The position numbers and the translations under genes are program-made. From contig JBAZLM010000004.1 in NCBI GenBank assembly GCA_041650295.1, positions 51,860 to 115,859 of the forward strand: DNA of 64,000 nt. Direction: 5' to 3'. The stretch comes from Candidatus Omnitrophota bacterium. Lineage in GTDB: Bacteria > Omnitrophota > Gorgyraeia > Gygaellales > Profunditerraquicolaceae. Below, piece after piece: positions 9,505-43,373 of the stretch; positions within the stretch are counted from its first letter, which is position 1; each line of letters starts with the position of its first letter. The notes below the pieces were generated by a model that was not told the DNA's origin, made no database searches, and was given only the letters and a program-made list of their open reading frames with translations.

Positions 9505-10289
9505 TTCTAGTTCAACTGCGCAATTCTGGCCTGGTGGCGCTTTATCAGGCCGGTAATTTAATTTTAAAAGCCGGAGATTGTGTGATTGTTGAACATGATC
9601 GAGGACTAGATTATGGGGCGGTGGTTTTACCAGGACATGCCCGTTGCTGTGCTACAGAAGAAGCTTCGAAAGAACCGCCTAAAAAAATAATTCGCTTGGC
9701 ACGCGAAAGTGATCTTAAGCAAATTGATGACAATGTGATTAAAGCCAAAGAAGCCTATAATGTTTGTGATAAAAAAATAGCTGAGCATAAATTAGATATG
9801 AAGCTAGTAAAAGCTGAGTATTCTTTTGATCGTTCTAAAATTTTATTTTATTTTACCTCTGATGGCCGGGTGGATTTTCGCAATTTAGTTAAAGATTTAG
9901 CTAAAATGTTTAAAGCACGTATTGAGTTAAGACAAATCGGAGTTAGGGATGAGGCTAGACTTTTTGGCGGGTATGGCTCTTGTGGTCGGGAGCTTTGCTG
10001 TAAGAAATTTTTGAAAGATTTCGAACCGGTAACTATTAAAATGGCCAAAGAAGAAGGTCTGCCTTTGAATCCTCCTAAAATTTCCGGATTATGTGGAAGA
10101 TTAATGTGTTGCCTTTCTTATGAATATGAAACTTATAAGATTCTTTCTAAAGGTTTACCGCATGAAGGTGAGCATATTGGTACACCTCAAGGTAAAGGTA
10201 AAGTTATTGGTGTAAATGTTTTTAAGAGAGTGGTTAATGTGGAGTTAGAAGAAGGTGGTTATTTAGAGGTAAGTTATAAAGAGAAATAA
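9492..10289 (+). CDS. PSP1 C-terminal domain protein (YaaT/RicT-like)
   Basis: Cys-rich PSP1-like C-terminal region (CGRELCC...CGRLMCC). It follows holB as yaaT does in Bacillus. Confidence 0.65.
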   Translation: MEGMILVQLRNSGLVALYQAGNLILKAGDCVIVEHDRGLDYGAVVLPGHARCCATEEASKEPPKKIIRLARESDLKQIDDNVIKAKEAYNVCDKKIAEHKLDMKLVKAEYSFDRSKILFYFTSDGRVDFRNLVKDLAKMFKARIELRQIGVRDEARLFGGYGSCGRELCCKKFLKDFEPVTIKMAKEEGLPLNPPKISGLCGRLMCCLSYEYETYKILSKGLPHEGEHIGTPQGKGKVIGVNVFKRVVNVELEEGGYLEVSYKEK

Positions 10290-10290
10290 T

Positions 10291-11823
10291 ATGGCAAATA
10301 AATTCTATATTACTACTCCGATTTATTATGTAAATGCTTCTCCGCATATTGGGCATTCTTATACCAATATTGCTGCGGATACTTTGGCACGCTATAACCG
10401 TAATTTTTTAGGAAAAGAGAATGTTTGGTTTCTGACTGGCACTGATGAGCATGGTCAAAAGATTAAAAAAGCTGCTGATGAAGCTAAACTTTCTACTTTA
10501 GAATTTGTAGATAAAGTGGTCGAGCAGTTTAAGGATTTATGGAAGAAGCTTGAGATATCTAATGATGATTTTATTCGCACGACTCAAGCCAGACATATTC
10601 AGTGTGTGCAAAAAGCTCTGCAGATAGTTTATGATCAAGGCGATATTTATGAGGCTAAATATGAGGGGTGTTACTGTACGCCTTGTGAAACCTTTTGGCC
10701 TAAGACGCAAATTGTGGATAATCTGTGTCCTGATTGTAAGCGCCCTTTAGAGAATATTAGCGAGACTAATTATTTTTTTAAATTATCAAAATATCAGGAT
10801 TGGTTAATTAAATATATTAAAGATACAGAAAAAAATCCTGAAAGGATTCATTATATTCAGCCGGCATCTCGACGTAATGAAGTTTTGAGTTTCTTAGAAA
10901 ATAATAAATTAGAGGATCTTTGTATATCTCGGCCGATTGAGCGCTTGAGTTGGGGAATTCCATTACCCTTTAGCCCTAAGCATGTAACTTATGTTTGGTT
11001 TGACGCTTTGATTAATTACATTAGTGCGGTTGGCCAGTTTGATGCCAACAATGTCTATCAATCTCGATGGTGGGAGAAAGATGTTAAGGTAGTGCACCTG
11101 GTGGGAAAAGATATTTTAAGACACCATGCAATTTATTGGCCGATTATGTTAAAAGCTTTAGGAATTAGACAACCGGATACTATCTTTGCGCACGGTTGGT
11201 GGATGATTAATGAAGATAAAATGTCAAAGTCGCGCGGAAATGCGGTTAATCCGATTGAGATGGTCGATAAATTTGGCATTGATGTTTATCGTTATTTTCT
11301 TTTGCGTGATGTGCCCTTTGGTTTAGATGGTAATTTTTCCGAAGAAGCGATTATTAAAAGATTTAATGGGGACCTGGCTAACGACTTGGGAAATCTTATC
11401 TATCGAACACTCACGATGGTAGAAAAGTATTATGCCGGAAAAATTCCGGATATAGATATCTATAGTACTGCTTATGATGGTCCAGGAGAGAATATTAAAG
11501 ATAAGCTTGCGCAGTTGCAAAAAGAAGTTTCTATCCCGCTGGCCTGGGGTAATGATTTCAGTTTAGCGTTAGAAAAAGTTTGGGAAGTTATTGGTTTAAC
11601 CAATAAGTATGTTGAAGAGACTAAGCCTTGGAATTTGGCAAAAGAAGGCAAGGATGAACAACTGAAAGCCTTTATTTGTTTATTGGTGCAAGCGATTAGA
11701 AAGATTGGTCAAGAAATTGCACCGTTTATGCCTAAAACAGCTGAATCGATAATTTTGCAGTTGGGTAGTAATCAGATTAAAAAAGGCAATCCTTTGTTCC
11801 CGCGCATTGAAATAAATAAGTAA
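10291..11823 (+). CDS. metG: Methionine--tRNA ligase
   Basis: HIGH motif (PHIGHSYT), KMSKS (DKMSKSRGN) and a zinc knuckle (CYCTPCE...CPDCK). Confidence 0.9.
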   Translation: MANKFYITTPIYYVNASPHIGHSYTNIAADTLARYNRNFLGKENVWFLTGTDEHGQKIKKAADEAKLSTLEFVDKVVEQFKDLWKKLEISNDDFIRTTQARHIQCVQKALQIVYDQGDIYEAKYEGCYCTPCETFWPKTQIVDNLCPDCKRPLENISETNYFFKLSKYQDWLIKYIKDTEKNPERIHYIQPASRRNEVLSFLENNKLEDLCISRPIERLSWGIPLPFSPKHVTYVWFDALINYISAVGQFDANNVYQSRWWEKDVKVVHLVGKDILRHHAIYWPIMLKALGIRQPDTIFAHGWWMINEDKMSKSRGNAVNPIEMVDKFGIDVYRYFLLRDVPFGLDGNFSEEAIIKRFNGDLANDLGNLIYRTLTMVEKYYAGKIPDIDIYSTAYDGPGENIKDKLAQLQKEVSIPLAWGNDFSLALEKVWEVIGLTNKYVEETKPWNLAKEGKDEQLKAFICLLVQAIRKIGQEIAPFMPKTAESIILQLGSNQIKKGNPLFPRIEINK

Positions 11824-11829
11824 CCTCCT

Positions 11830-12591
11830 ATGTTGATTGATTCGCATTGTCATCTCGATTTTACTGAATATGATTTGGATCGCCAGCAGGTTATTGGCCG
11901 CGCAGAAGCCGCCGGAGTAAATTATTTTATTAATATTGGCGCTACTTTAGCATCTTCCCAGGCCTCTTGCGTGTTAGCTAAACAATATGCACAAATTTAT
12001 GCTAGCGTAGGGGTACATCCGCATGATGCTGATACTTTTAATTTAGACGCAGAAAAAAAATTAAGAGCATTGGCTAAGTTTGACAAAGTAGTTGCTATTG
12101 GTGAAACAGGTTTAGACTATTATCGTAATTTATCTAGCCAGAAAAATCAAAAACAGGCGTTTATTCAGCAGATTGCCCTAGCTACAGAATTGAATTTACC
12201 GCTAGTCATTCACAGTCGTCAGGCTGAAGTTGATGTTTTAGAAATTTTAAAATTACATCAACCGTTGCGGGCGGTAATTCATTGTTTTTCCGGGAATGAA
12301 GTTTTTTTACGTGAATGCTTAGAGATGGGATTTTTTATCTCATTTACTTGCAATATTACTTATAAAAAAGCTCAAGGTTTAAGAGAGATGGTTAAATTGA
12401 CCCCGCTTGATCGATTAATGTTAGAGACTGATGCTCCCTATTTATCACCTGAAGGATTCCGCGGGAAACGTAATGAACCGATGCAGATAAAATTATTAGC
12501 GCAAGAAGTTAGTCTGATTAAACAGGTAAGTTTCGCAGAGATTGCTAAGATAACTACACAAAATGCCAAAAATTTCTTTAATTTACGATGA
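11830..12591 (+). CDS. tatD: TatD family metal-dependent hydrolase/DNase
   Basis: N-terminal DSHCHLD motif, about 253 aa. It follows metG (the metG-yabD arrangement). Confidence 0.85.
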   Translation: MLIDSHCHLDFTEYDLDRQQVIGRAEAAGVNYFINIGATLASSQASCVLAKQYAQIYASVGVHPHDADTFNLDAEKKLRALAKFDKVVAIGETGLDYYRNLSSQKNQKQAFIQQIALATELNLPLVIHSRQAEVDVLEILKLHQPLRAVIHCFSGNEVFLRECLEMGFFISFTCNITYKKAQGLREMVKLTPLDRLMLETDAPYLSPEGFRGKRNEPMQIKLLAQEVSLIKQVSFAEIAKITTQNAKNFFNLR

Positions 12592-13709
12592 GTGCTAAAG
12601 TTTCGATAGTTAAGTGTAATAGTTATGCGCCGGCGGTAGTGGAGCAGGCCCTAAGAGATACTTTAAAGATCTTAGGCGGGATTACTAGTTTTATTAAGCC
12701 GGGATCAAAAGTTTTAGTTAAACCAAATCTTTTAATGTCTAAGCCACCAGAGGCTGGAATTACTACGCATCCTGAGGTGGTCAGAGGGATGATTCATGTT
12801 TTAAAAGAGATTAATTGTCAAATTATCGTGGGGGATGGGCCCAGTGTCTGGGGTCAGTATATTGAAAATGTTGATCAGGTTTATGAGATTACAGGGATAA
12901 AAAGAGTTTGTCAGGAAGAGAAAGTGGAGCTGGTTACTTTTGATAAACGCAGGATGCGTCAAAAATTTCCGTTAACTGTTTGGCTAGATGAGTGCGACTA
13001 TTTAATTAATTTACCTAAATTTAAAACACACGAGTTTACATTATTAACGGGAGCGATTAAAAATCTTTTTGGGCTAGTATCGGGTACTTATAAAACGGAG
13101 TTGCATAAAAATTATTTTGAACCTGCGGAATTTGCTAAGATTCTTGTGGATATTTATCAAGAGACTAAACCAGCTTTAACGATTATTGATGGGATACTGG
13201 CGATGGAAGGTGATGGTCCGGCCACGAGTGGAAAAATCCGACAACTTAATTTATTATTGGGTGGGGCTGATTGCGTAGCTTTAGATACAGTAATGGCTAA
13301 AATTATGGGAATTACCGGCAAAGAGGTACTTTCGACAAAAGAAGCAGTCAGACGTAATTTAGGTGAGGGCCAATTAAGCAAAATTTTAGTTGAAGGGGAG
13401 TCTATAGATAAGCTAAATATTCGGCCGTTTATCTTACCGATGACTTCGGCTAAGATTACTAAGTTACCAGTAGTTATTAAGAAACTTTTAAAATCTTTGA
13501 TTAGATATTATCCATATTGTTTAAATTTGAAATGTATTCGCTGTGGACACTGTGTGAAAGTTTGCCCGAAGGGTTGCATAAAACTGAAAAACAGTGGTAT
13601 TAAAATAAATTATAAGCAATGTATTGCTTGTTTTTGCTGCCAGGAGGCCTGTCCTGAGGCAGCGATAAATGTAAAGAAAAGCTTGTTTGCCAAATTATTA
13701 GGCTTATAG
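12588..13709 (+). CDS. DUF362 domain protein fused to a 2x[4Fe-4S] ferredoxin domain
   Basis: The N-terminus matches the DUF362 pattern (VKPNLL...GITTHPEVV). The C-terminus carries two CxxCxxCxxxCP motifs (CIRCGHCVKVCP, CIACFCCQEACP). Confidence 0.7.
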   Translation: MSAKVSIVKCNSYAPAVVEQALRDTLKILGGITSFIKPGSKVLVKPNLLMSKPPEAGITTHPEVVRGMIHVLKEINCQIIVGDGPSVWGQYIENVDQVYEITGIKRVCQEEKVELVTFDKRRMRQKFPLTVWLDECDYLINLPKFKTHEFTLLTGAIKNLFGLVSGTYKTELHKNYFEPAEFAKILVDIYQETKPALTIIDGILAMEGDGPATSGKIRQLNLLLGGADCVALDTVMAKIMGITGKEVLSTKEAVRRNLGEGQLSKILVEGESIDKLNIRPFILPMTSAKITKLPVVIKKLLKSLIRYYPYCLNLKCIRCGHCVKVCPKGCIKLKNSGIKINYKQCIACFCCQEACPEAAINVKKSLFAKLLGL

Positions 13710-13798
13710 CTGTTTTTGCCTAAACCCGCTATTTTTTCTCTCAAAACCCCAAAAGTTCGTATTTAAGCCAGATATTGCAGTTTTATAAATATTTTGCT

Positions 13799-13826
13799 TT
13801 GATATTGATTTTTCCTTACCTATATT
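13799..13826 (+). promoter_or_regulatory. Candidate sigma70-type promoter for the giant gene
   Basis: TTGATA, a 16-nt spacer, then TATATT, about 50 nt upstream of the ATG at 13875. Confidence 0.3.
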
Positions 13827-13874
13827 GCATACTTTATATACGTAAATGGCTGATAACTAATAAACTCAAAAACT

Positions 13875-16800
13875 ATGAAATTTAAGTCTTCAAAACTATT
13901 TAAAATCATTGCTTTGTTGATCTGTTTTGTGCTGTGCTTTGAGCAATCTGGCTTTGCGCAAATTGCCGCTCAACTGGATATCTCAGGCAAGTTATCTGGC
14001 TTGGTTAATTCCATCGCCCAGGACAAATTTCGCCCCCTACATCTGCGTTATCTTCAGTATGATACTAAACTCAATAACTTTAAGCTTCTTCTGGATAAGG
14101 GTAGCTCTAAAGAACTCTCTAAACCTTTTATCGAGCAATCCACTAAAACATTACTAAACTACTTCTTAGCCGGAGTCACTTTACCTAATGACACCTTTTG
14201 GGTAAACCTAAGACCGGATTCTCCAGATAACGTCATTGACCCAGCTTTAGCTCAAACCGACATCGGTCGCATTATGCTAGAAGCTGACGTCCAGCTTAAA
14301 AAAGATACGGCTAGCTTTACTTCTCCCAACACCCCAGAAGGCAAACAATACTGGGATAAGCTCTATACTAAAGCCGGAGAACTCTTTGGCTCTCAAAACA
14401 TCACTATCCCCACCTTAACCCGTCCCTGGATAGTCCCCAACGAGATCATCATCCGTGAGACTATTGATAACGCCTATATCTATAAAGCTACCCTAAAAGT
14501 CATGTTGGAAGATGATTACTTAAAAGAAGGTAAAGGTATCGGCACCGGTATAGATTACTCCTTCAAAGATGAAAAATTAAAACAACTCAACCAATACTCA
14601 TCTGAACTTATCCGCCAGTTAATCATTCCCAAACTAACCAAAGAGATCAACACCTCAAAACGCTACGCTAACCTGCGTCAGGTATACTACTCGTTAATCT
14701 TAGCCCAATGGTTTAAACAGAGATTTGCTAACAACTCTGGAGCTTATTCCAAACTAATCAACCAGAAAAACCTCACTAACCTAACCTCTAAAACCAGCTG
14801 GAGCAAGGATACTTACTTCCAGCAATACCAAAAGTCCTTTAAAGACGGGGAATACAATATCAAAACCCCGGTATCTACCCCTTACGGCCAGGTGATCAGG
14901 AGCTATTTTTCGGGAGGGATCAGGCCTATACCGCAAATTCCTGCTCCTGGAGAAGTATCGCAAGATGGTTTAGTTACTTCAGTAAAAGGGGGAGAATTAT
15001 TTGCAACGGTTACCGGAAGCGATAAGCTGGCAGGGGTTAGCATCGATGATGGAGTAGTAAAAACTACTGATCAGGCTCAGCCATCAAATGGATTTAAAAT
15101 AGAGGATCAAACTACCCCTCCAAAAGTTGAGAATGGTATCTCCGTTAGAAGAGTTGATCTATCCAAATTACCAGTAGGAACGATTATTAAATATAGAATT
15201 TCAAATGATAATTGGAATTATACCTTAAGAGTCGAAGCTAATGGAAGAGTTAGTATCTGGTTGAGGGAAGATCAAGGAAGAATAACCGCGTCGATTAAAG
15301 CTATTGGGAGCAGAGTTCCTTCACTTACCCCGGGCGATGCATATGATGCAGATTTTTTCGGAGAAATAGAACCTGGCGTATTAGCCTATCAGCCGTATTT
15401 TAATCAAACTGATATAGCTGGCAGCAAGGTGCGAGAATTAGTATCCATCGGTGATTATCCTATTCAAGCTACTCCGGAAGACATTATGGTCTATTTGCCT
15501 GATGGAAAAACTCAATTGCCTCGAGAAAAGCCACGGGCATTGCAAGATAAATTTAAGCGTAAAGTCAAAGAGCTAAATGAATTTATTGTTCATCATGGTA
15601 TTCCCGGAGAAAACCCGTTGGAGGCTAACGGATTTGAATTTTTGGTAAAAAGCGGGATAACTAAGGTGGAGATCTTGGCAGAGCGTTTAGGAATGGATAA
15701 GGATAGCCTTGAGGAGATTCTTAGCGCGGTTGAAGAGCAAAAAGGATGGGACATTATTGAAAAGACGATTGATACTTCGACGTTTAGTTTTGCTTTTGAA
15801 AAATTGGCAAAACTACAGGCCGAAAAGAATCTTTATCCAAAACCGCAAAAAACAATTAAGGAAAAGGCCTATGAATTTAAAGATAAAGTTATCAAATTTG
15901 TAAAAGATGAAACTGGCGCGTTGCAGCTAACAGGCTATCGCCAAGATAAAAAATTTAATCAAAAAATTGCAATGGATAAAAAGCTAGCAGGTTTTTATGC
16001 GATTGCGGAAGACCTACTTGAACAACTCCAAAAATTTCCAGATAAACAAGATCTAGTAATTGAGCTTATTGAAAATAAATTTAATGCATTAGTTAGGGAA
16101 TTTCCAAAACAACGCATAGAATTAAATAATGCTAAGAATGAACTTGTTAATGAGCTTGCTATTAATTTGTCATCTGGGCAGCAAGAAAGCATATATTTAC
16201 ACGGTTATTATGAGATTTTAAAAAATATTCTAAATAAATTAATCCCTTGGACGGATGATTTAAAAAAGAAAAACCCTGATTCAGAGTTTATTTTTGTGGC
16301 CAGAGATGCCGGATATATCTATTCGGTATTTAATGCTTTAGGAAAATTAGGTAAGGAGAAAGCCGAAGGATTTGTATATTATTTAAGCCGCGCTTCTATG
16401 TCTGAAGATTTAATTCGCAACGGTCCTTATGATACTGCAAGACGCATGATTAATCAAGCCCACTCAGATACAAAAACCGATAACATTAATGAGCTAACCG
16501 GAAATATTAGAAAAGAATTTAAAGATTATTTAGAACAGGACGATAGGTCTTTTTTGGATGAAACATCCCGTAAGGAATATTTAGAGTTTAAGAATATGGT
16601 GATTAAAGTTAATAGTGAGCTTAAAGCTTTAGGCTATGATCAATTGCAGAAACTAGTTTTGGTTGAGACAGGATTTAAAGGTACGATGCCGTTTTTGATA
16701 AAATTTATTTTAGATTTAGATAAAACGGATGAACAGTTAGCTAATGAAGCAAAAGAAAACGGTGGACAGGAAAATATTCAAGTCGCTATTTTAGAACCTA

Positions 16801-19800
16801 GGGATATTCCTGCTTTTACCGATGGTGTTTATGGCTTAACTGCAGAACAAGCTGAAACTGAGATGAATAAATTTGAAGATTTTTGGGGAGGTCAAGCAGT
16901 AGAAACTCCTGAGAGTGTGGTGGATCTCTTAGAAAAAGAAGATATCTCTCACCCGATAGAGTTTAACTTAATTGATTCAAGGGTAGAAAGAAATAGCAAT
17001 CCTGTTGAGTTGTTAAAATATTTTGTTAATCAGCTAGTAGTTGGGTTAGAAACAATTGAATATTATAAAAAAACTAGAAAGGTTGATGTTGAAAAGCCAG
17101 TGAATAAGTCCTTAGCACAGTTATCTCCTATTGCTGCGACTAAAATTATTGGCTCTGCGCTTGACAAAGGTAATAATTCTTTAGATGGACTGATTGCAGA
17201 AACCCCGGATTATACGGGAAAATTAGTTCAGTTGCAAAATCCCAAACAGATGAGCGCTGGAAATTTTGACGGTACTAGCCATCTGCAATTTACTGATGAT
17301 CCTCAGGGAAAAGCGGGGCAGGTTTGGTTATTTAAAGGTTATCCTCGGCAGAAATGGCATCGCGCTTTAGTTGATGAATTTGTTTATCATATAGCGGAAA
17401 AGCTTGGTTTAAAAAGTGCAATACCGGTTTTTGCCGGGCGGATTAAAAATGGATATATGACCGAGTTTGGAATGTTTATGCGCTGGGAGGAGAACATTGG
17501 TTCTTTGTATGAAGTTTATAGAGGTGATTTTATCCAAAAATTAAGTGAGAATAAAGAAAATCTTAAAACAGTTTTAAGGGAACAGGTCCTAGATTGGCTA
17601 GTTTCACAGCATGATTCCCATTCTCGGAATTTTCTTATTGCTGACGATAAAGACAAAAGTCTTATTCCGATTGATTTTTCACAGGCATTTAAGTTTTTAG
17701 GCAAAGATGAGCTTTCGCTTGATTACAATCCTAATGGTGATGTTAATGGCTACAATAATGTTGCCTACATGCCGATCTATAATCTTATTTATCAAGCAAT
17801 AATTAATAAAGAGATTGATTTTACCCTAACTGAGGCCTGGGAAGTTGTGCAGGAGGTGTTAGAGCGCGTAGAAGAAATGGATACTGATGAATATATTCAG
17901 GCTTTAAAACCTTATGCTGAATTTAGATTTAAAATAATGAAGGATGCTAGTTGGAGTATTAGAAATAGCGATGAATTTTTAAAGTTAGCCCGGGAAAGAA
18001 AAGTTAATATGCGTAAAGATTTCGAAAAGTTTTATAAAAAGCTCGGTTTTTCTAGTGAGACTGATTATCGTTTTAGTTTGCTGGAAATCATGGAGAACCC
18101 CCTCCAAGAGAAGCAAGAATTTTATGTCGATCAATTTAATGCGCTCTGGATTTTTAATGAAAATCAAGATTTGGCTACCAAACCTTATAAGTCTTTAGCG
18201 GCAAAAACTTATCATCAATTTATGGGAAAAGTTTTAGATCGCAATAGTATCGTTTTAGAAACAACTTTTAAAGCTAAAGATGGTCGCATTCGCACTGGAA
18301 CGATGCAAAAAGTTTTTTATCAGGAGCCCTCAGCCAATAAACAATTAAAAGAATTGAATCTTGCGGATTTCAGAGATTGGAGCCAAAACCGGGTATCTAT
18401 AAAATTTTGGGGGCTGGAACCGCCAAAGATTAAGCAAGTTTTGGAAGAGATGGTGATTGATTGGTTATTTTCTAATTACAGCAGTACCGAATCAACCTGG
18501 TTTGAACATGGGTACGCTAAATTCTATTTAATTTGTTTAGATGATAAATCGGATTCTTTTAAAGATTTTCCCAATGACAGGCTTGAGGCGAAAAAGGATT
18601 CTGATGATAAAATAAAACCACCTTTTGCTTACAATTTAGTTAAATATTTAGCTCTCCAAAATCGTCTTTCTATGGATCTGATTGAAGAAATATTGAAAAA
18701 AATTGAAAGTATTCCGGATAACGAAGTTGAAGAACTAATTCGTCCGCTAGCCAAAAGTTATGTTGCTACTAACCCTGATAAGTTTAAGCGTCCGGAAGAT
18801 TTTATAAAAGCATTTTTATCTAGAAAAGACAATTTACGTAAGGATTTTAAAGAATTTTTTCATCAAAATTATTTATTAAATACACCGTTTAATTCTCAAG
18901 TACAAACTCATCAGGCGATGACAGATAAATATATTATTTCCTCAGATCTCTATCAACAGATACATAATGCCCGAGGTGATCAAACCGCGATTATTAAGCT
19001 AATTAACCAACGTTTTAATGAATTAGCCGAAAATTTATCCTGGGAGGAAGTGGAACCTCTAGCGCAAAAAAAGGAAGAGCTGATTATCCGGATCACTGGA
19101 CCGCCAGTTTTAACGAATCAAGATGTACAAATGGATTTACAAACTAATCCTATTGTGCGAGATCGGAAGTTTAAAGCTATGTCTAGACTGTTGGCTTCTT
19201 GGGTTTATTCTTTAAGAGAGCAAAAACCTGATTATTATCTGATTGGTTTAGCCCGTGACGGAGGATATATTCCTTTAATTGATCAATTATTTAATTATGC
19301 TGGAATAATTCCTAAAACTGGCTCTAGTGTTTATCATTTGAGCTGCCCCCGGATGTCAGGAGAGACGCAAAAGAAAATTTATAGCATGATGTATGAAATT
19401 ATTGCAAATGCATTAAAAAATGTTGAGCATAATGATATCCAAGGTTTATATGCGCAAATTCGTTTAGGATTTAATAAAGCAATGGCTGAGAATTCAAGTT
19501 TTTTAGTGATGGTTACAGAAATTCGGAAAGAATTGATAGGGCTTGGATTTGATCAAAAAAATAAAATTGTCATTACGGATACTGGATTTTTTGGAACAAT
19601 TGCTTTCTATATCAAATGTATTTTAGATATGGATAAAAGCCAAGCAAGATTGGAACAAGAATTAGTGGATAATCATGGTCATGAAAATATTGAAGTTGCC
19701 ATTTTACAACCTAGCAGTATAGAAAGTTTTAACAAAAGTTTATTTGGTTTTGATACAACGAGACTTACTCAAGATGATCAGGCTATCGCCAGAAAGTTAG

Positions 19801-22400
19801 AAACAATTTTTGGTTTGCGCAATGTTTTAGGAAATGAATTTGAGAGCAATAAAATTATGCATCCGGTAAAATTTAATGAAGACAATTGGCTGATCGAAGA
19901 TACTGATGCCAGCTCACAATTGGAATTATTTTACCAGCAGATCATGATTGCTCAAATGGTGGATGCATTTATTGCTAGAGAGGGGATTGATTACCCGGGG
20001 CAAGATACTTTGGCTGGTTTTGGTGGCATTGATTTAGACGAAAAGATTGCCGCCCAGGCATTTTTTGATCAACCGGATAATGGTGAGTTAAAAGTTATTA
20101 TTGACCGTTGGTTTAAAGAGTTAATCGCTAAAGATGGATATGTAGCATTTAAGAAATTATATGATGCTTGCGGCCGGTTAAGCTTTATTAAATTATTGCG
20201 TTTAAAATTTCCCCTGCTTTCCACTAACATAATTTTGACCCCGAATCAAGAATTTAAAAGACAATCTCTGTTGGTGCAGTATCTACTTAAACGACAAGGT
20301 ATTCTAACCAGCAGTGTCCCGGTAGCTAGAAAAAAAGACCCAAAGAGCTTACCTTTTGAAGCGGATAAAAAATTCAGTGGTGTGTTATTGGATGTTGATG
20401 GCACAATTACCATGCCCGGCGGAGAGATATCTGATGCGATCATCGAAAAAGTTGAGGAAATGATTACCCGTGGAAACAAGGTAGGAATAGTTACTGGCAG
20501 AAGAGCGCTATCCCCGGATGTTTTTGAGGAGGTAATTAAATTAAAGGTTAACCGACAGGCGTTAAATAATCTTTACATTTTTACCCAGGATGGGGCTCAA
20601 GGTTATAGTGTAGGTGATACTAATCTGCGATGGGAATTTAAAACCGGTTTAAATGAACGAAAAAAGATTTTAAAGAAGTTGGAGCGAAGCGAATTGGTTA
20701 AGTTCCATTGCCAAATTATTCCTGAATCAGCAAAATTAATTTTTAAAATGGATAATCATGACGATACGGACGATTTAATTTTAACTTTAAAGATTGCTTT
20801 AGTTGATTTAGGTTTGGATGCTAAATATTCTGTGGTGGATGCCGGGGCAAATGTGCATTTAATCGCTAGTCAAGCGGACAAAGGAGCGGCAGCCAAAAAA
20901 TTTAGCAATGTAACCGGTTTAGCTCAAGAAAATATATTAAAAATTGGAGACAACTATAATTTGGATGGCAATGATTATCCAATGTTGGCTTTGCCCGGAG
21001 GGGTGGGAGTCAATGATAGCGAGACTACGCTTTGGTTGCTAGATACCTATTTTAAAAATACTGTATTGACCCCAAATATACAATTATTTGCACTTACCGA
21101 TGAGGGGACTGATCCTTTAAGTAATTCTCTGCATTTTGTTAACAATAAAGACATTACGAGTGTAATTTTACCCAAAAACAAATTCGCTGCTTCGGTGGAC
21201 ATGTTAAAAGTGTTTGAAGAATCTTTGCAATACGAATTAGGTAAAGTTCCGCTTTTTTCTATTTTCGGTTCACTTTCTTATGCGCGTGATAAAGAAGGTA
21301 ATATTATTTGGGATACGATCGGTGATTTTGATATTAAGCTTTATACTGAAGAATTATTATGGAATGATGATATCACAGAGATAAAACTTAACTTTTTAAA
21401 TGCTCTTAAAAATCTGGGAATAAAAGTGGATATTCAGGGTAGTGATTCTCCATCTGGATCAGGGCGTGATCTGAGTTCATTAAACTGGGGTATTCTGGAC
21501 AAGCAGGGCAAAAAATATATAGTACATATTATTAATTTTAGAACTAAAGATCTACTTTCTAAAAATGACGCTTTTGTAAATATCCGCAGTAATTTATTTT
21601 ATGGAGATACGCAAGCTTTAAATAATGCGTTGAACATTGTTGGCATTGAAACGGCGGTTGAACAAGCTGCGGTTAGCTGCGAAAAAACGATCTCAATTAT
21701 AAGCAATGCGATAGCTAAAGTAGAAAATATTCGGTCAGAGAATGTGAAACTATTAAAGAGATTATACCAAATTGCTTATGTACAAGGTCGAGAAGCTGAT
21801 TTTTATTGGCTTTTAGAAAAATACCGGAAATTAAGTTTAGAATTTAATCAACAGGATTTAGCTGACGCTTGTAATGAGGGAATCTCTAAACTTATTATGA
21901 ATCCTGAAGAATTACGTGCACTGTTACGTGATAGACTTAAAGCAAATATTAAATTAGTTGATAGTAAATCTATGGCTACTGTTGCGATTCCTGGCGCCGC
22001 ATCGGATAAAGGTGGCGTTGACTTTCGCGGTCTGCCAATTGGCATCCAAAGTCAAAGGATGATTGGCGCATCAGCAGTATTGATTCCGTCTCCAAGGTTA
22101 GATCAAGAGTGGAGCCAGATTGAGCGCATGCTTAACCAAGGAATTATCCCTTCTATTGAAAGGCTGAAAGATTATCTCTCTTTATCTTGTAAGGGCGCAG
22201 ATTGTTCGGCTAGAGTTGATCAAACCTTAAGCGGAATTGCCAATATTCTTAGAATTGAAGAAGAGAGCTTAACCCCCACTGATGCAGCTTTAAAACAACT
22301 GTTAATTTTACTGGAATCTAATCAACCGGCGAATCAATTACAGTTAGCTTTAACCAAAATTCAAGCATCAGAAAAGATGCCGGAGTTAGCTATTCATTAA
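13875..22400 (+). CDS. Giant secreted multidomain protein (2841 aa) with a signal peptide, two paralogous internal domains, a PI3K/PI4K-like atypical kinase motif set, a HAD-superfamily phosphatase domain and a possible nucleotidyltransferase-like segment
   Basis: Single uninterrupted 8526-nt ORF. The N-terminus has a signal peptide (MKFKSSKLFKIIALLICFVLCFEQSGFAQ). The clearest domain is HAD, with motif I LLDVDGTIT, motif II S/T (VGIVTGR), motif III K (DKGAAAKKF) and motif IV GDNYNLDGNDYPML. A kinase-like region has WLFKG, a DSHSRN catalytic loop and IDFS. GS...DFD suggests an NTase fold. Paralogous segments share ARDAGY/ARDGGY and TGF(K/F)GT motifs. Confidence 0.85.
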   Translation: MKFKSSKLFKIIALLICFVLCFEQSGFAQIAAQLDISGKLSGLVNSIAQDKFRPLHLRYLQYDTKLNNFKLLLDKGSSKELSKPFIEQSTKTLLNYFLAGVTLPNDTFWVNLRPDSPDNVIDPALAQTDIGRIMLEADVQLKKDTASFTSPNTPEGKQYWDKLYTKAGELFGSQNITIPTLTRPWIVPNEIIIRETIDNAYIYKATLKVMLEDDYLKEGKGIGTGIDYSFKDEKLKQLNQYSSELIRQLIIPKLTKEINTSKRYANLRQVYYSLILAQWFKQRFANNSGAYSKLINQKNLTNLTSKTSWSKDTYFQQYQKSFKDGEYNIKTPVSTPYGQVIRSYFSGGIRPIPQIPAPGEVSQDGLVTSVKGGELFATVTGSDKLAGVSIDDGVVKTTDQAQPSNGFKIEDQTTPPKVENGISVRRVDLSKLPVGTIIKYRISNDNWNYTLRVEANGRVSIWLREDQGRITASIKAIGSRVPSLTPGDAYDADFFGEIEPGVLAYQPYFNQTDIAGSKVRELVSIGDYPIQATPEDIMVYLPDGKTQLPREKPRALQDKFKRKVKELNEFIVHHGIPGENPLEANGFEFLVKSGITKVEILAERLGMDKDSLEEILSAVEEQKGWDIIEKTIDTSTFSFAFEKLAKLQAEKNLYPKPQKTIKEKAYEFKDKVIKFVKDETGALQLTGYRQDKKFNQKIAMDKKLAGFYAIAEDLLEQLQKFPDKQDLVIELIENKFNALVREFPKQRIELNNAKNELVNELAINLSSGQQESIYLHGYYEILKNILNKLIPWTDDLKKKNPDSEFIFVARDAGYIYSVFNALGKLGKEKAEGFVYYLSRASMSEDLIRNGPYDTARRMINQAHSDTKTDNINELTGNIRKEFKDYLEQDDRSFLDETSRKEYLEFKNMVIKVNSELKALGYDQLQKLVLVETGFKGTMPFLIKFILDLDKTDEQLANEAKENGGQENIQVAILEPRDIPAFTDGVYGLTAEQAETEMNKFEDFWGGQAVETPESVVDLLEKEDISHPIEFNLIDSRVERNSNPVELLKYFVNQLVVGLETIEYYKKTRKVDVEKPVNKSLAQLSPIAATKIIGSALDKGNNSLDGLIAETPDYTGKLVQLQNPKQMSAGNFDGTSHLQFTDDPQGKAGQVWLFKGYPRQKWHRALVDEFVYHIAEKLGLKSAIPVFAGRIKNGYMTEFGMFMRWEENIGSLYEVYRGDFIQKLSENKENLKTVLREQVLDWLVSQHDSHSRNFLIADDKDKSLIPIDFSQAFKFLGKDELSLDYNPNGDVNGYNNVAYMPIYNLIYQAIINKEIDFTLTEAWEVVQEVLERVEEMDTDEYIQALKPYAEFRFKIMKDASWSIRNSDEFLKLARERKVNMRKDFEKFYKKLGFSSETDYRFSLLEIMENPLQEKQEFYVDQFNALWIFNENQDLATKPYKSLAAKTYHQFMGKVLDRNSIVLETTFKAKDGRIRTGTMQKVFYQEPSANKQLKELNLADFRDWSQNRVSIKFWGLEPPKIKQVLEEMVIDWLFSNYSSTESTWFEHGYAKFYLICLDDKSDSFKDFPNDRLEAKKDSDDKIKPPFAYNLVKYLALQNRLSMDLIEEILKKIESIPDNEVEELIRPLAKSYVATNPDKFKRPEDFIKAFLSRKDNLRKDFKEFFHQNYLLNTPFNSQVQTHQAMTDKYIISSDLYQQIHNARGDQTAIIKLINQRFNELAENLSWEEVEPLAQKKEELIIRITGPPVLTNQDVQMDLQTNPIVRDRKFKAMSRLLASWVYSLREQKPDYYLIGLARDGGYIPLIDQLFNYAGIIPKTGSSVYHLSCPRMSGETQKKIYSMMYEIIANALKNVEHNDIQGLYAQIRLGFNKAMAENSSFLVMVTEIRKELIGLGFDQKNKIVITDTGFFGTIAFYIKCILDMDKSQARLEQELVDNHGHENIEVAILQPSSIESFNKSLFGFDTTRLTQDDQAIARKLETIFGLRNVLGNEFESNKIMHPVKFNEDNWLIEDTDASSQLELFYQQIMIAQMVDAFIAREGIDYPGQDTLAGFGGIDLDEKIAAQAFFDQPDNGELKVIIDRWFKELIAKDGYVAFKKLYDACGRLSFIKLLRLKFPLLSTNIILTPNQEFKRQSLLVQYLLKRQGILTSSVPVARKKDPKSLPFEADKKFSGVLLDVDGTITMPGGEISDAIIEKVEEMITRGNKVGIVTGRRALSPDVFEEVIKLKVNRQALNNLYIFTQDGAQGYSVGDTNLRWEFKTGLNERKKILKKLERSELVKFHCQIIPESAKLIFKMDNHDDTDDLILTLKIALVDLGLDAKYSVVDAGANVHLIASQADKGAAAKKFSNVTGLAQENILKIGDNYNLDGNDYPMLALPGGVGVNDSETTLWLLDTYFKNTVLTPNIQLFALTDEGTDPLSNSLHFVNNKDITSVILPKNKFAASVDMLKVFEESLQYELGKVPLFSIFGSLSYARDKEGNIIWDTIGDFDIKLYTEELLWNDDITEIKLNFLNALKNLGIKVDIQGSDSPSGSGRDLSSLNWGILDKQGKKYIVHIINFRTKDLLSKNDAFVNIRSNLFYGDTQALNNALNIVGIETAVEQAAVSCEKTISIISNAIAKVENIRSENVKLLKRLYQIAYVQGREADFYWLLEKYRKLSLEFNQQDLADACNEGISKLIMNPEELRALLRDRLKANIKLVDSKSMATVAIPGAASDKGGVDFRGLPIGIQSQRMIGASAVLIPSPRLDQEWSQIERMLNQGIIPSIERLKDYLSLSCKGADCSARVDQTLSGIANILRIEEESLTPTDAALKQLLILLESNQPANQLQLALTKIQASEKMPELAIH

Positions 22401-22475
22401 ACAGGACGCTTATCCTTCCTAAAAGGTTATCAGCCAAGTCAGAAGGTGGTTAGTTTGAGCGCCCTGTTTTATTTT
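22400..22475 (+). terminator. Putative terminator region after the giant gene
   Basis: Imperfect inverted repeat AACAGGACGC...GCGCCCTGTT followed by TTTTATTTTAT. Confidence 0.3.
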
Positions 22476-22535
22476 ATAAATTTCTTTTGGTGATAATTTA
22501 TGCTAAAATCAATCAAGATTACCCACCGATAATTA

Positions 22536-23594
22536 TTGGTAAATAAAATAATGTATATCCGCACTATTGATTGGAAAAATAATAAAGTTAGATTAATTGA
22601 TCAGACCAAGCTGCCCGGAAAGTTAATTTATATCAATATTGATGATATAAAAGATCTTTGGCAGGCGATCAAAATAATGCAGGTGCGCGGGGCTCCGGCA
22701 TTAGGGGCAGCTGCGGCGTTGGGGGTGTATCTGGGGATAAAAGATTTCACTGGTCTGGACAGAAGCCAGTTTATTTTGAAATTAAATAAAGTTGCTCAAT
22801 ACATCGCTAGCTCTCGACCGACGGCTAGAAATTTATTTTACGGGATTGAAAGAGTGCAGGCAGTTGCTTTAAAAAATAAAAATCTTTCGGTAGATAAAAT
22901 TAAACAAGCTGTTCTGGCTGAGGCAAAAATGATTATGCAAGAAGATCGGCAAGCTTGTCGAAAGATTGGCTCCTATGGGGAAAAGTTATTAAAAGATAAG
23001 AGCAGGGTTTTAACGATTTGTAATGCCGGAATTTTAGCGACCATTGATTATGGCACGGCACTAGGAGTAATTTATACGGCTAAGCATAAAGGCAAAAAGA
23101 TAAAAGTTTACTCTTGTGAAACTCGACCCTTGCTTCAAGGGGCACGTTTATCTACTTGGGAGTTGTATAAACAAGGAATTGATGTCTCCATGATTGCGGA
23201 TAATACTGTCGCCACACTAATGGTACAGGGTGAGATTGATTTAGTAGTTACGGGAGCAGATCGGATTGCTGCTAACGGTGATGCCGCGAATAAAATTGGT
23301 ACTTTGAATTTAGCAATTCTGGCTAAATTTCACAAGATACCTTTTTTTATCGCTGCACCCAAAAGTACTTTTGATTTAAGTATAAAAAATGGCAAAAGAA
23401 TTAAAATCGAAATGCGTCAAAGCCAAGAGGTAACCAAGATGCTGTTAAAAAAAGATATTGCCCCAGCAAAAGCCAAAGTTTTAAATCCTGCTTTTGATGT
23501 AACTCCACACGAATTAATTAGTGGTTTGATTACAGATAAAGGAATTATTTATAAACCTTATTTAAAAAATATTAAAAAAATTTTAGGAAGTTAA
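22536..23594 (+). CDS. eIF-2B alpha/beta/delta-like isomerase, either S-methyl-5-thioribose-1-phosphate isomerase (MtnA) or ribose-1,5-bisphosphate isomerase
   Basis: MtnA/e2b2 family hallmarks (QTKLP, VRGAPALGAAAA, C-terminal GADRIAANGD). No other methionine-salvage genes are nearby. Confidence 0.7.
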   Translation: MVNKIMYIRTIDWKNNKVRLIDQTKLPGKLIYINIDDIKDLWQAIKIMQVRGAPALGAAAALGVYLGIKDFTGLDRSQFILKLNKVAQYIASSRPTARNLFYGIERVQAVALKNKNLSVDKIKQAVLAEAKMIMQEDRQACRKIGSYGEKLLKDKSRVLTICNAGILATIDYGTALGVIYTAKHKGKKIKVYSCETRPLLQGARLSTWELYKQGIDVSMIADNTVATLMVQGEIDLVVTGADRIAANGDAANKIGTLNLAILAKFHKIPFFIAAPKSTFDLSIKNGKRIKIEMRQSQEVTKMLLKKDIAPAKAKVLNPAFDVTPHELISGLITDKGIIYKPYLKNIKKILGS

Positions 23595-23596
23595 GA

Positions 23597-24490
23597 ATGC
23601 GATTAAATAAAGTTGGTGAATTTGGTTTAATAAAAAAATTTCAAGAAAAAATTAAAACTGATGCTTCAGTGATTAAAGGCAGCGGTGATGATTGTGCGGT
23701 TTTAAAGTTTGATCAAAATAATTATCAGCTATTAACTACAGATATGATTGTAGAAGGGGTAGACTTCAAGAAAGATGCCTTGCCTAATCTTATTGGTAGA
23801 AAAGCCTTAGCCATTTCAATTAGTGATATTGTCGCTTGTGGTGGTATCCCAAAACAGGTCGTGGTGGCGTTGGGTTTACCGAAAACAATTTTTCTTAAAA
23901 AAGTTGAGCAGATTGCCAAGGGCTTATTTGATCTGGCTAAAGCGTATAAAATTAATGTAGTGGGAGGGGATATTAGTGTCGCGAATCAATTAGTTATTAA
24001 TACCACTCTTTTAGGAGTTGTGGAGAAAAATAAGTTGTGTTTGCGCCAAGGAGCTAAAGTTGGCGATCTAATTATGGTTAGCGGAGAGTTTGGCGGTTCA
24101 ATTAAAGGTAAGCATTTAAAATTTACTCCTCGGCTAAAAGAGTCGCGTTATTTAGTTGATAATTTTAAAGTTAATGCAATGATTGATGTCTCTGACGGAC
24201 TAATTCAGGATTTAGGACACATCTTAGAGCAAAGTCAGGTGGGTGCAGTTATTTATGAGAGTCTGGTTCCCTTAAGTAAAATAGCAAAAAATATAGATGA
24301 TGCACTTTGTTCAGGCGAAGAGTTTGAGCTGCTTTTTACTGTTTCAAGGGATATGGCTAATAAAATTATTAAATCATTAAAATATAAATTTAACGTGATT
24401 GGCGAGATTATGCCAAAGTCCTTTGGCCTAAGAACGATTAATTTAAATAATAAATATTCTAAGCTTAAATTGGGGTATCGACATTTTTAA
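23597..24490 (+). CDS. thiL: Thiamine-monophosphate kinase
   Basis: AIR-synthase-related fold with DDCAVL...TTDMIVEGVDF N-terminal motifs. Confidence 0.8.
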   Translation: MRLNKVGEFGLIKKFQEKIKTDASVIKGSGDDCAVLKFDQNNYQLLTTDMIVEGVDFKKDALPNLIGRKALAISISDIVACGGIPKQVVVALGLPKTIFLKKVEQIAKGLFDLAKAYKINVVGGDISVANQLVINTTLLGVVEKNKLCLRQGAKVGDLIMVSGEFGGSIKGKHLKFTPRLKESRYLVDNFKVNAMIDVSDGLIQDLGHILEQSQVGAVIYESLVPLSKIAKNIDDALCSGEEFELLFTVSRDMANKIIKSLKYKFNVIGEIMPKSFGLRTINLNNKYSKLKLGYRHF

Positions 24491-24958
24491 ATGGAAAAAT
24501 TATCGCATAGCGTTAATCAAACATTAAAGATAGGCAAGCAACTTGGCCGTAAGTTGCAAGGTAGCGAAATTATTCTTTTGTCGGGTACTTTGGGCGCAGG
24601 TAAGACGGTTTTAGCTAAAGGGATTGCTCAGGGTTTGGGAATTAACAAGAACAATGTGATTAGTCCGACCTTTGTTTTGCTGCGGGTGCATAAAGGTAGA
24701 CATATTTTGCAGCATTTTGATCTTTACCGGGCTAAAACTACAGACGATATTTTTGGTTTGGGTTATGATGAGTATCTGTATTCTGCGGCGGTAACGGTGA
24801 TTGAATGGCCAGAACGTTTAAAATTTCTCTTGCCAAAGGAATTTATCAAGATTAAGCTGATCTCAAAAGCTAAAGATAAAAGATTACTAAAGTTCAGCGC
24901 CAAAGGAAAGAAACATAAGGAGTTATTAAATAAAATTTTTGAATCCCGCACCTTCTAA
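24491..24958 (+). CDS. tsaE: tRNA threonylcarbamoyladenosine biosynthesis protein TsaE
   Basis: P-loop LSGTLGAGKT, about 155 aa. Adjacent to tsaB. Confidence 0.8.
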   Translation: MEKLSHSVNQTLKIGKQLGRKLQGSEIILLSGTLGAGKTVLAKGIAQGLGINKNNVISPTFVLLRVHKGRHILQHFDLYRAKTTDDIFGLGYDEYLYSAAVTVIEWPERLKFLLPKEFIKIKLISKAKDKRLLKFSAKGKKHKELLNKIFESRTF

Positions 24959-25016
24959 TTTTTATTGTTTTTAGAAGTAATTGTGGGAATAGGTACAAAT
25001 AAAAAGAAGGTGCGGG

Positions 25017-25691
25017 ATGAAGATATTAGCGATTGATACGACTACTAAAATTCTTTGCTTAGGGTTATATATAGATGGTAAGGTCTATGAGTATAATCTT
25101 GAGGTGGGTAGGAATTTGTCGCAATTATTGGCGACAACTATTCAAAGAGTAGTCGCAGCAGCCAAAATTAAAATCTCAGAGATTGATTATTTTGCTTGTG
25201 GCTTAGGTCCGGGGTCTTTTACCGGGATGCGTATTGGTTTGGCTACGATTAAAGGGTTAAGTGTGATTAAGGATAAACCGGTTGTCGGAGTATCTTCATT
25301 AGATGTTTTGGCTTTAAATGCACCGGTTACAGAGCGCTTGATTGTTACGGCTTTAGATGCCAGAAGAGAATTAATTTATTGTAGTGCTTATCAATATGTA
25401 AAAGGCTTATTAAAGCGTAAAAGTGATTATTCGCTTTTGAATTTAAAAGAATTTTTACAAAAATTTAAAAGTAAAAGCATAATGTTGGGAGATGCGCTGG
25501 CTTTGTATGGTGATAAAATTTCGGCGCAAACTAAGGGAACTGTTTTGTTAGATAAAGATTACGGAAAACTTAATGCACATAATCTTGTTACTTTGGCTTT
25601 AGCGAAAATAAAAGCCAAGCAATTTAGCAGTGCATTAAACATAAAACCAATTTATTTATACCCTAAAGAATGCCAGATCAAAACCAGATAG
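25017..25691 (+). CDS. tsaB: tRNA threonylcarbamoyladenosine biosynthesis protein TsaB
   Basis: YeaZ-type N-terminus MKILAIDTTT, inactive Kae1 paralogue fold. Confidence 0.8.
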   Translation: MKILAIDTTTKILCLGLYIDGKVYEYNLEVGRNLSQLLATTIQRVVAAAKIKISEIDYFACGLGPGSFTGMRIGLATIKGLSVIKDKPVVGVSSLDVLALNAPVTERLIVTALDARRELIYCSAYQYVKGLLKRKSDYSLLNLKEFLQKFKSKSIMLGDALALYGDKISAQTKGTVLLDKDYGKLNAHNLVTLALAKIKAKQFSSALNIKPIYLYPKECQIKTR

Positions 25692-26794
25692 GTTACCGGC
25701 CGACCTGGGCCGAAGTTAACCTGAACAATCTAAAGTATAATTTTAAGCAAATTAAGTCGCTACTTAACCCCAAGACTAAAATTTTGGTTACGGTAAAGGC
25801 AGATGCTTATGGGCATGGATTAATTCCTGTCGCAAAGCAATTAGTTACTTCTGGTGTGGATTATTTGGGCGTTGCTTCCATTGATGAAGGAATTAAATTA
25901 AGAAAAGCCGGCATTCGGCTGCCGATTTTATTATTAGGTCTAATTCTTAAAAAAGATATTACTCCAGTTTTTGCTTATCGGCTTACGCCTACTGTTTGCG
26001 ATATGCAGACGGCTGTTGCGCTTAATACGAAAGCCGCTAGATTAAATAAAAAATTAGCATTACAAATCAAAGTAGATACGGGGATGGGCAGGATTGGAGT
26101 CTTGCATGATGATGCCTTTAAATTAGTTACAGATATTTATAAGTTAAAGCATATTGTTATTGACGGTATCTTTACCCATTTTGCTTTTGCGGATATTAAT
26201 CGTAAACTTACGGATCGCCAAATTAATTTATTTGAGCGATTAATTGATGATCTTAAGGCAGCAGGCATGACTATTCCTTTAGTGCATGCTGCTAATAGTA
26301 TCGGCTTAATTGATTATCGGGACAGTCATTTTACGATGGTTAGGCCAGGTTTAGTCATTTATGGTTTGTATCCTAAAGAGCAGTTAAGGATAAAATTAAA
26401 ACCGGTATTAAGTTTAAAAACGCAGATTATTTTTATTAAAAAAGTTTCTGCGGGAAGCAGAATAAGTTATGCCGGTACTTATATCACTAAGCAACCAACT
26501 TATATTGTTACTTTACCGATTGGTTACGGTGACGGTTATCCGCGCAATCTTTCTAATTTAGCTTATCTTTTAATTGGTGGACGAAGATTTCGCATCGCTG
26601 GACGGATTTGTATGGACCAGATTATGGTGGATGTGGGTAGTTTTAAGCCAAAGATTGGCGATGAAGTTATTTTGATTGGTACTCAAGGCAAACAAACTAT
26701 TACTACCGAAGAATTAGCTAAACTTTCTAAAACCATTTCTTATGAAATCGTCTGTGGTTTAGGCAGTCGCATTCCCCGTATTTATAAATCTTAA
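25670..26794 (+). CDS. alr: Alanine racemase
   Basis: PLP-binding motif VKADAYGHG and a C-terminal beta domain. Confidence 0.85.
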   Translation: MPDQNQIGYRPTWAEVNLNNLKYNFKQIKSLLNPKTKILVTVKADAYGHGLIPVAKQLVTSGVDYLGVASIDEGIKLRKAGIRLPILLLGLILKKDITPVFAYRLTPTVCDMQTAVALNTKAARLNKKLALQIKVDTGMGRIGVLHDDAFKLVTDIYKLKHIVIDGIFTHFAFADINRKLTDRQINLFERLIDDLKAAGMTIPLVHAANSIGLIDYRDSHFTMVRPGLVIYGLYPKEQLRIKLKPVLSLKTQIIFIKKVSAGSRISYAGTYITKQPTYIVTLPIGYGDGYPRNLSNLAYLLIGGRRFRIAGRICMDQIMVDVGSFKPKIGDEVILIGTQGKQTITTEELAKLSKTISYEIVCGLGSRIPRIYKS

Positions 26795-34356: not shown

Positions 34357-34362
34357 CTTTTG

Positions 34363-43359: not shown

Positions 43360-43373
43360 CAAAAATAATCAAT

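Follow-up and report, generated by a model that had tools for sequence, protein, structure and literature searches.

Introduction

The solved structures that come closest in fold to the kinase domain described here are those of the eukaryotic lipid kinases PI4KIIalpha and PI4KIIbeta (PDB 4PLA, 4HND and 9HHM), with which it shares 16–17% sequence identity. The domain, termed K1, lies within a protein of 2841 aa (the giant protein) encoded on the + strand of a 64,000-nt stretch of DNA from a Candidatus Omnitrophota bacterium (GenBank assembly GCA_041650295.1, contig JBAZLM010000004.1, positions 51,860 to 115,859). The whole of this stretch is called the window, and nucleotide (nt) positions are given in its numbering; the open reading frame (ORF) of the giant protein occupies 13875–22400. 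The PI4KII enzymes have the motifs DRxxDN and IDNG, whereas K1 and its relatives have NHDxHxxN and IDKxQAF, together with a YxPN...YN segment of their own and a helical C-terminal extension that ends in RKxxxxxDFxxFY. The K1 family occurs in bacterial or phage settings and gives no hint of a lipid substrate, and no Pfam match to the PI3K accessory (PIK) domain was found anywhere in the giant protein.

Two kinds of bacterial kinase are also close in structure. CtkA of Helicobacter pylori (JHP940; PDB 3AKJ) is a secreted pro-inflammatory Ser/Thr kinase that is 11% identical to K1, with no sequence-level match to it. CtkA is a small, single-domain protein, whereas K1 is part of a tandem of kinase and predicted pseudokinase within a multi-enzyme giant. 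The HipA toxin kinases (PF07804; PDB 4PU3, 3TPD and 7AB3) differ from K1 in both the N-lobe and the C-terminal helices. Neither a HipA N-terminal domain in the giant protein (by Pfam) nor a HipB-type neighbouring gene was found, and a HipA toxin–antitoxin module was rejected as an explanation of the locus on these grounds.

True homologues of K1 occur in phage head proteins fused to MuF domains, such as Onyinye gp16 (annotated as an ‘ADP-ribosyltransferase’), McProf gp54 and a prophage protein of Syntrophus buswellii. These have the same K, HD and IDK motifs, often in tandem kinase copies, and are accompanied by MuF, ADP-ribosyltransferase (ART), NUDIX or SLT partners beside terminase and portal genes. 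The giant protein has none of these; in their place it has a putative signal peptide, an N-terminal domain of the type found in Omnitrophota, two copies of a domain termed A, a HAD domain and a housekeeping neighbourhood. Polyvalent and polymorphic effector proteins with MuF domains are held to be loaded into the capsid and delivered to the host by injection (PMC5512222, PMC9503650). A domain of the kinase superfamily has been described within multi-domain proteins of phages and conjugative elements, with a predicted role in modifying the proteins of the host once injected (Iyer et al. 2017, PMC5512222). That polyvalent-protein kinase has lost the whole of the C-terminal subdomain and is centred on Verrucomicrobia–Chlamydia and Bacteroidetes (PMC5512222), whereas K1 has a large helical C-lobe and its family has another taxonomic spread. 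Compared in this way by description, the K1 family appears to differ from it.

The K1 family is a new family inside the well-known kinase superfamily and occurs in two contexts, as part of large, putatively secreted proteins from uncultured bacteria and of phage head proteins. No description of it was found in the literature searched, which covered Omnitrophota giant proteins, polyvalent proteins, phage systems acting on NAD and ADP-ribose (ADPr), surveys of kinase-like families or KINtaro.

The predicted structure of K1

K1 comprises 264 aa (aa 1129–1392; 17259–18050, + strand). With an alignment of 40 full-length domain sequences (A3) as input, AlphaFold2 (AF2) gave a model of K1 with a pLDDT of 94.5 and a pTM of 0.92. 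This superseded a run with an alignment of two sequences that was unusable (pLDDT 59). Starting at the N terminus, the model forms a five-stranded N-lobe with the order beta-beta-helix-beta-beta-beta, in which a long helix directly follows the strand that carries the Lys. Two helices then lead into the DWLxSxHD loop, after which the chain forms two short strands, passes through the Asp and an extended conserved segment, and continues as the helical C-terminal subdomain. This is the architecture of the protein-kinase-like fold, with a beta-rich N-lobe containing one regulatory helix and a helical C-lobe. The residues that define that fold are also present, namely the N-lobe Lys (K1154), the catalytic Asp (D1247), the Asn (N1252) and the metal-binding Asp (D1267).

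Comparison of the model with the PDB using Foldseek gave PI4KIIalpha as the first match (E = 1.1e-5, TM 0.55), then PI4KIIbeta and PI4KIIIbeta (E = 1e-5 to 1e-4), followed by PknB and CK1. All of the significant matches are kinases. The nearest bacterial structural neighbours are CtkA, HipA and CotH, and Fam20B is found among both the structural and the sequence neighbours. Among predicted viral structures the best match (BFVD A0A6B9L6W7) is a 1340-aa ‘ADP-ribosyltransferase’ of Mycobacterium phage Onyinye (TM 0.77, E = 1e-11, 25% identity), and the next are phage proteins labelled by UniProt as ‘PI3K/PI4K catalytic domain-containing’. On the basis of the model, K1 is a catalytically equipped kinase domain with a protein-kinase-like fold, belonging to the atypical group that includes PI3/4K, HipA, CtkA, CotH and Fam20. 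An earlier note on this DNA had proposed that the region contains a PI3K/PI4K-like catalytic core with bilobal architecture. The AF2 model and the Foldseek matches to PI4K bear out the proposal, as does the spacing D-x-H-x-x-N in the catalytic loop, which is that of DRHxxN.

The active site of K1

The proposal was based upon three motifs, all of which are present in the translation in one + strand frame inside the ORF of the giant protein. They are GQVWLFKGYPRQKWHRALVDEFVYHIAEKLGL (GQVWLFKGY...KLGL; aa 1148–1179, nt 17316–17411), QHDSHSRNFLI (aa 1245–1255, nt 17607–17639) and IPIDFSQAF (aa 1264–1272, nt 17664–17690). The order and spacing are those expected of the core; the second motif begins 97 aa past the start of the first (66 aa past its end), and the third begins a further 19 aa along, in agreement with the ~90 and ~20 aa given in the note. 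Together they correspond to the catalytic elements of the family, i.e. K1154, D1247/H1249/N1252 and D1267. The interval to which the core had been assigned, 17260–17800, does hold these motifs in frame, but position 17260 itself is out of frame, with stops there, and the interval is smaller than the domain.

Conservation was counted over 209 domain instances. K1154 (17334–17336, + strand) is the predicted ATP-binding Lys of the WLFK sequence. It closes strand 2, with a helix next, in keeping with the likeness to IFK...DLRQD that had been pointed out; the Lys is invariant in A3 and occurs in 198 of the 209 domains. The catalytic loop runs D1247-S-H1249-S-R-N1252 (17613–17630, + strand), where the Asp is conserved in 202 domains, the His in 162 and the last position as Asn or Gln in 190. 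The Arg of DRH is absent from the K1 loop. D1267 lies 20 residues past D1247 and is the predicted metal-binding Asp, equivalent to the Asp of DFG; with the adjacent F1268 it is encoded at 17673–17678 (+ strand), and the Asp is present in 202 of the 209 domains. The equivalence of all of these residues to those of solved kinases is drawn from their secondary-structure positions and the Pfam match, rather than from superposition.

In 202 of the domains a Lys follows the metal-binding Asp; Phe takes this place in K1 of the window alone. The suggested likeness of IDF to the (H)IDFG sequence of PI3/4-kinases thus holds for the conserved Asp but is partly coincidental, the family consensus being IDK. 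Given this distribution of Lys and Phe in the aligned sequences, the IDF(G) look-alike is a lineage-specific oddity and not a feature of the family.

In A3 the invariant positions are the Gly of a G-loop-like GGxHxK, the Lys of WLFK, the D and W of DWL, and the Asp residues of SNHDxHxx(N/Q) and IDKxQAF. Further conserved elements are YxPN, YN and RK...DFxxFY. K1 has every motif of the family (the G-loop Gly, WLFK, DWLxSNHDxHxx(N/Q), IDKxQAF, YxPN, YN and RK...DFxxFY) except for the Lys of IDK. A chance resemblance of motifs was rejected, because K1154, D1247, N1252 and D1267 fall in columns that are conserved across the 209 domains and because the domain models as a kinase.

K1 belongs to a distinct kinase family

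The PF00454 (PI3_PI4_kinase) profile matches K1 at 14.3 bits (E = 0.039) over profile positions 139–172 only, against a cut-off of 27.1. The profile search that had been proposed as a check is thus suggestive, but does not make K1 a member of PF00454. The HipA_C profile (PF07804) gives 22.8 bits when the domain is scanned by itself and 17.7 bits with the complete protein, the cut-off being 30.5. The sub-threshold matches to both profiles fall on the catalytic loop, in K1 and in other members of the family, the latter scoring 17–20 bits with PF00454. Since the scores of 14.3 bits with PF00454 and 22.8 bits with HipA_C are both below threshold, K1 is classed by sequence as a member of a distinct kinase family (‘NHDxH...IDK’), for which Pfam, NCBIfam and PHROGs contain no model.

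Other searches agree in finding no assigned relatives of K1. Nothing meaningful was found in NCBIfam, no domain of the giant protein has a match in PHROGs, and a search of PDB sequences with K1 alone gave no match. A profile made from the 40 sequences gave only insignificant matches to PDB sequences, in the catalytic loop, with Fam20B (E = 0.33) and HipA (E = 1.6). Word-indexed homologue searches recovered few relatives (one match, then three). The family came to light only in an exhaustive HMMER search, which used a two-sequence profile derived from K1 and its closest small homologue P0001; K1 matches this profile over its full length at 478.8 bits. The search returned 1073 cluster representatives at E ≤ 1e-3 (538 of them at E ≤ 1e-10), the majority being multidomain proteins of 1000–3600 aa; in many the domain occurs twice in tandem.

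A degenerate second kinase domain

A second kinase-like domain, K2, is located directly downstream of K1 in the giant protein (aa 1413–1680; 18111–18914, + strand). It is similar to K1 with E = 2e-11 and to other members of the family with E values down to 1e-18, and is homologous to the C-lobe of many of them. In K2 WLFK is replaced by WIFN, and DWLxSNHDxHxxN by DWLFSNYSSTESTW, with the loop NYSSTEST in place of NHDxHxxN; the Asp of LDDK is kept. The signature is NSTDK compared with KDNDK, the Lys being replaced by Asn, the catalytic Asp by Ser and the Asn by Thr. Because these three residues are lost, K2 is classified from its motifs as a pseudokinase.

Tandem domains are found in about one-third of the family representatives. 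Usually both copies are intact; in a handful the second one is degenerate. The pairs Fam20A/Fam20C and JAK JH2/JH1 are examples in which a kinase has a non-catalytic partner, and by analogy K2 is most likely a scaffold or regulator that serves as a non-catalytic partner of K1.

Relatives in bacteria and phages

The closest genomic relatives of K1 (40–50% identity) are encoded in a Candidatus Omnitrophota metagenome-assembled genome (MAG), in Planctomycetales MAGs and in the candidate phyla radiation (CPR; Uhrbacteria and Magasanikiibacteriota). The Omnitrophota relative (locus L003) is a protein of 2296 aa in which the N-terminal domain, the kinase and two A-domains recur, along with a HAD match that is weak and sub-threshold. 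Directly upstream of its gene there is an additional, stand-alone kinase gene of the same family (L003 54–1058; 334 aa). A HAD domain is likewise found after the kinase in P0006 (579 aa, comprising kinase and HAD only) and in P0004, and the recurrence of this arrangement suggests a functional kinase–phosphatase link.

P0001 (351 aa; L001 4176–5231) begins before a 1352-aa ORF upstream of it (L001 164–4222) has ended, and the last residues of that ORF already match the N terminus of the kinase. A frameshift or an assembly error has probably divided a single, larger protein, leaving P0001 as its C-terminal part.

In Uhrbacteria a stand-alone kinase of 300–340 aa is followed by a conserved partner gene. 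The partners in two loci (L005 5628–7607, 659 aa; L007 6829–9468, 879 aa) are 53% identical to each other, have no Pfam match and have no detectable relation to the giant protein. The product may be a partner or target of the kinase. There is also partial synteny with the window, where metG, tatD and a DUF362 gene (10291–13709) precede the giant kinase gene; on the Uhrbacteria contig LCAH01000018 (L005 1599–5621) the order is metG, a small ORF, tatD and the stand-alone kinase. This may be coincidence, since the second Uhrbacteria locus (L007) lacks it.

Many relatives at a greater distance (~30–36% identity) come from Desulfobacterota, Armatimonadota, Hydrogenedentota and other phyla, where one genome often holds several copies. 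Members of this distant group are fused to MuF, ADPrib_exo_Tox (an ART), DRAT, NUDIX and SLT domains. A phage context is seen for some of them, among those examined. In Syntrophus buswellii the kinase gene follows those of TerL and portal, and its product begins with a Phage_Mu_F domain. In cultured mycobacteriophages the kinase domain is unannotated within proteins named as ‘minor capsid and ADP-ribosyltransferase fusion’, and these homologues of K1 are found by tblastn with E values of 1e-8 to 1e-14. In IMG/VR, 304 stretches encode the family domain. These relatives match the published concept of the MuF-anchored effector (PMC5512222; PMC9503650). Pfam scans of the giant protein gave no match to PF04233 (Phage_Mu_F), and its neighbours are housekeeping genes, not terminase or portal genes.

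Architecture of the giant protein and its genomic location

All the features of the giant protein are encoded on the + strand. Starting at the N terminus, the chain has a segment resembling a signal peptide (MKFKSSKLFKIIALLICFVLCFEQSGFA; 13875–13961), with the putative cleavage site placed between it and the following Q. In a Kyte–Doolittle scan this is the sole hydrophobic stretch of the 2841 aa. It is followed by a conserved domain of ~370 aa (13962–15074), common to the large kinase-bearing proteins P0003, P0005 and P0009, with which it has 28–31% identity. Pfam, NCBIfam and PHROGs give no match to this domain, which is without a family assignment. An unassigned middle region then leads to domain A1 (16152–17099), and a paralogue A2 (19092–20084) is located beyond K1 and K2. 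Sequence comparison of A1 and A2 gives 30% identity (E = 5e-32), consistent with internal duplication of a ~300-aa domain. The shared motifs are ARD(A/G)GY and (E/D)TGFxGT, present as ARDAGY and ETGFKGT in A1, and as ARDGGY and DTGFFGT in A2. No match to either was found in Pfam, NCBIfam, PHROGs or PDB sequences, and a word-indexed protein search for the A-domain gave 0 matches. An A-domain profile (alignment A4) gives two matches in the L003 Omnitrophota protein and a single one in the ORF that precedes P0001 (L001).

The HAD-IIB phosphatase domain (20367–21074) is assigned from a match to TIGR01484 at 65.1 bits (cut-off 41.8, E = 9.4e-18) and to PF08282 at 45.1 bits. By eye its motifs are intact, with DVDGT at 20385–20411 and GDNYNLDGND at 20946–20975 corresponding to the DxDGT and GDxxxD motifs of the family. 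Beyond this, FGSLSY...(13 aa)...GDFDIKLY (21264–21344) is a possible Pol-beta-type nucleotidyltransferase motif (G-S ... D-x-D) on sequence alone; the region has no family match in Pfam or NCBIfam and no PDB support.

Close to the C terminus is a GGVDFRGLP motif (22011–22037). A GG(I/V)D(L/F) motif, typically GGIDLNPxxLxhxxxG, recurs near the C terminus of kinase proteins of the Omnitrophota type. It is found in the window at 20016–20039 in addition to 22011–22037, at aa 282 of P0001, aa 1822 of P0003 and aa 2209 of P0005. The GGIDLNP...L sequences of the last three are close to their C termini and are related to GGVDFRGLP. The motif could be a sorting or secretion tag.

The gene is preceded by holB, a PSP1-domain gene, metG, tatD and the DUF362 (DUF362/Fer4) gene, and followed by an IF-2B-family gene, an AIR-synthase-related gene (with AIRS and AIRS_C domains), tsaE, a TsaD-family gene and alr. 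No phage genes were seen among the ten flanking ORFs (8527–26794). The minus strand under the gene has no ORF of ≥80 aa. The G+C content of the gene is 0.365, compared with 0.367 for its flanks, and the protein is encoded identically on a 201-kb metagenome contig. Given the housekeeping neighbours, the G+C content and the identical protein on the second contig, this is a resident chromosomal gene and not an obvious insertion. Recent horizontal insertion, or an origin as a prophage gene, was rejected because of the G+C content, the neighbours and the lack of phage genes among the ten flanking ORFs. Elsewhere in the window ARAGORN finds a tmRNA gene (tag ANTNVFNRLAPKAAMPLMPAGVQALAFN) and four tRNA genes (Leu-CAG, Pro-UGG, Arg-UCU and His-GUG) at 35980–36381, 34362–34443, 43285–43448 and 45057–45133, which are ordinary chromosomal features.

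Discussion

The function that we favour, with moderate confidence, is that K1 is an exported effector kinase, which acts within the ATP-containing cytoplasm of another cell where it phosphorylates a protein target and not a phosphoinositide. If K1 works in the manner of PI3/4K and HipA, K1154 would hold the phosphates of ATP, D1247 would act as the catalytic base, and N1252 and D1267 would bind Mg2+. The giant protein would be exported by its signal peptide, there being no further membrane segment. Besides the kinase domains it carries other modules that would handle nucleotides or phosphate, namely the HAD-IIB phosphatase and the possible nucleotidyltransferase. Because an exported protein would encounter no ATP in the periplasm of the producer or outside it, K1 would be expected to act in the cytoplasm of another cell, and it would do so as an effector because the homologous phage domains are positioned for injection into a host.

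Several observations weigh against this. The best structural likeness is to a lipid kinase, leaving room for a lipid or small-molecule substrate, and the recurrent fusion to HAD-IIB, of the sugar-phosphatase type, could point to a small-molecule substrate. The giant protein lacks MuF and has housekeeping neighbours, so that the idea of an injected effector is transferred from distant relatives. Both the signal peptide and its cleavage site were judged by eye rather than by a predictor. Within the active site, F1268 in place of a near-invariant Lys could weaken or alter the activity of K1, and the acidic partner of the Lys on helix C is only moderately conserved in the 209 domains.

The structural likeness to PI4KII raises the question of whether K1 is a phosphoinositide kinase of PI4K type, acting on the membrane lipids of a host cell in the manner of eukaryotic PI4KII or of Legionella MavQ and LepB. 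We regard this as very unlikely. CtkA, HipA and CotH, the bacterial proteins nearest to K1 in structure, are protein kinases, the usual fusion partners are ARTs that modify proteins, and phosphoinositides are to our knowledge absent from most hosts of the phages concerned; each of these argues for a protein rather than a lipid as substrate. A more serious alternative, though still an unlikely one, is that K1 phosphorylates a small molecule (a sugar, nucleotide or metabolite) and is paired with the fused HAD-IIB phosphatase in a system of phosphorylation and dephosphorylation. The HAD-IIB subfamily are mostly sugar-phosphate phosphatases, the domain follows the kinase in the giant protein, P0006 and P0004 (with the weaker, sub-threshold match in L003), and a xylose kinase, Fam20B, is among the structural and sequence neighbours. 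In most of the family, however, a HAD domain is absent and the fusions are instead to MuF and to ARTs that modify proteins, and the relation to the bacterial protein kinases applies here too. In addition, the long, conserved helical C-terminal subdomain and the activation-like YxPN...YN segment would seem to resemble a surface for docking a macromolecule.

It is also possible to suppose that K1 has a kinase fold without phosphotransfer, being either inactive through the change of Lys to Phe, or active in AMPylation (like SelO) or glutamylation (like SidJ). Kinase-fold proteins with such alternative chemistries exist, F1268 replaces a Lys that is present in 202 of 209 domains, and the adjacent K2 shows that the giant protein tolerates a degenerate kinase domain. 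K1 itself has all four canonical catalytic residues, which purifying conservation has strongly maintained throughout a large family. We give this explanation a low probability. An exported kinase that modifies a protein in another cell remains the function that we prefer.

Taken more broadly, we suggest only tentatively that the K1 family comprises a large, previously undescribed set of delivered effector kinases, common to the capsid-packaged MuF polyvalent proteins and to the secreted giants of host-dependent, ultra-small bacteria (Omnitrophota and CPR), and often arranged as tandem kinase–kinase or kinase–pseudokinase pairs. If true, ultra-small bacteria and tailed phages would rewire the cytoplasm of the cell that they attack using the same enzyme.

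The family also marks a gap in annotation. At least ~1000 protein clusters have a kinase domain that can be folded with confidence and that is missed by current annotation. These include head proteins of cultured mycobacteriophages and the family domain in >300 stretches of viral contigs in IMG/VR; the phage records name only the ART or ‘minor capsid’ parts. The kinase domain provides a testable activity for the polyvalent proteins that phages inject, and for the giant secreted proteins of Omnitrophota and CPR, which are still poorly understood, as is their interaction with hosts. The K1 family forms a new bacterial and phage branch near the node of PI4KII, CtkA and HipA, and may help to relate the eukaryotic lipid-kinase fold to the bacterial toxin kinases.

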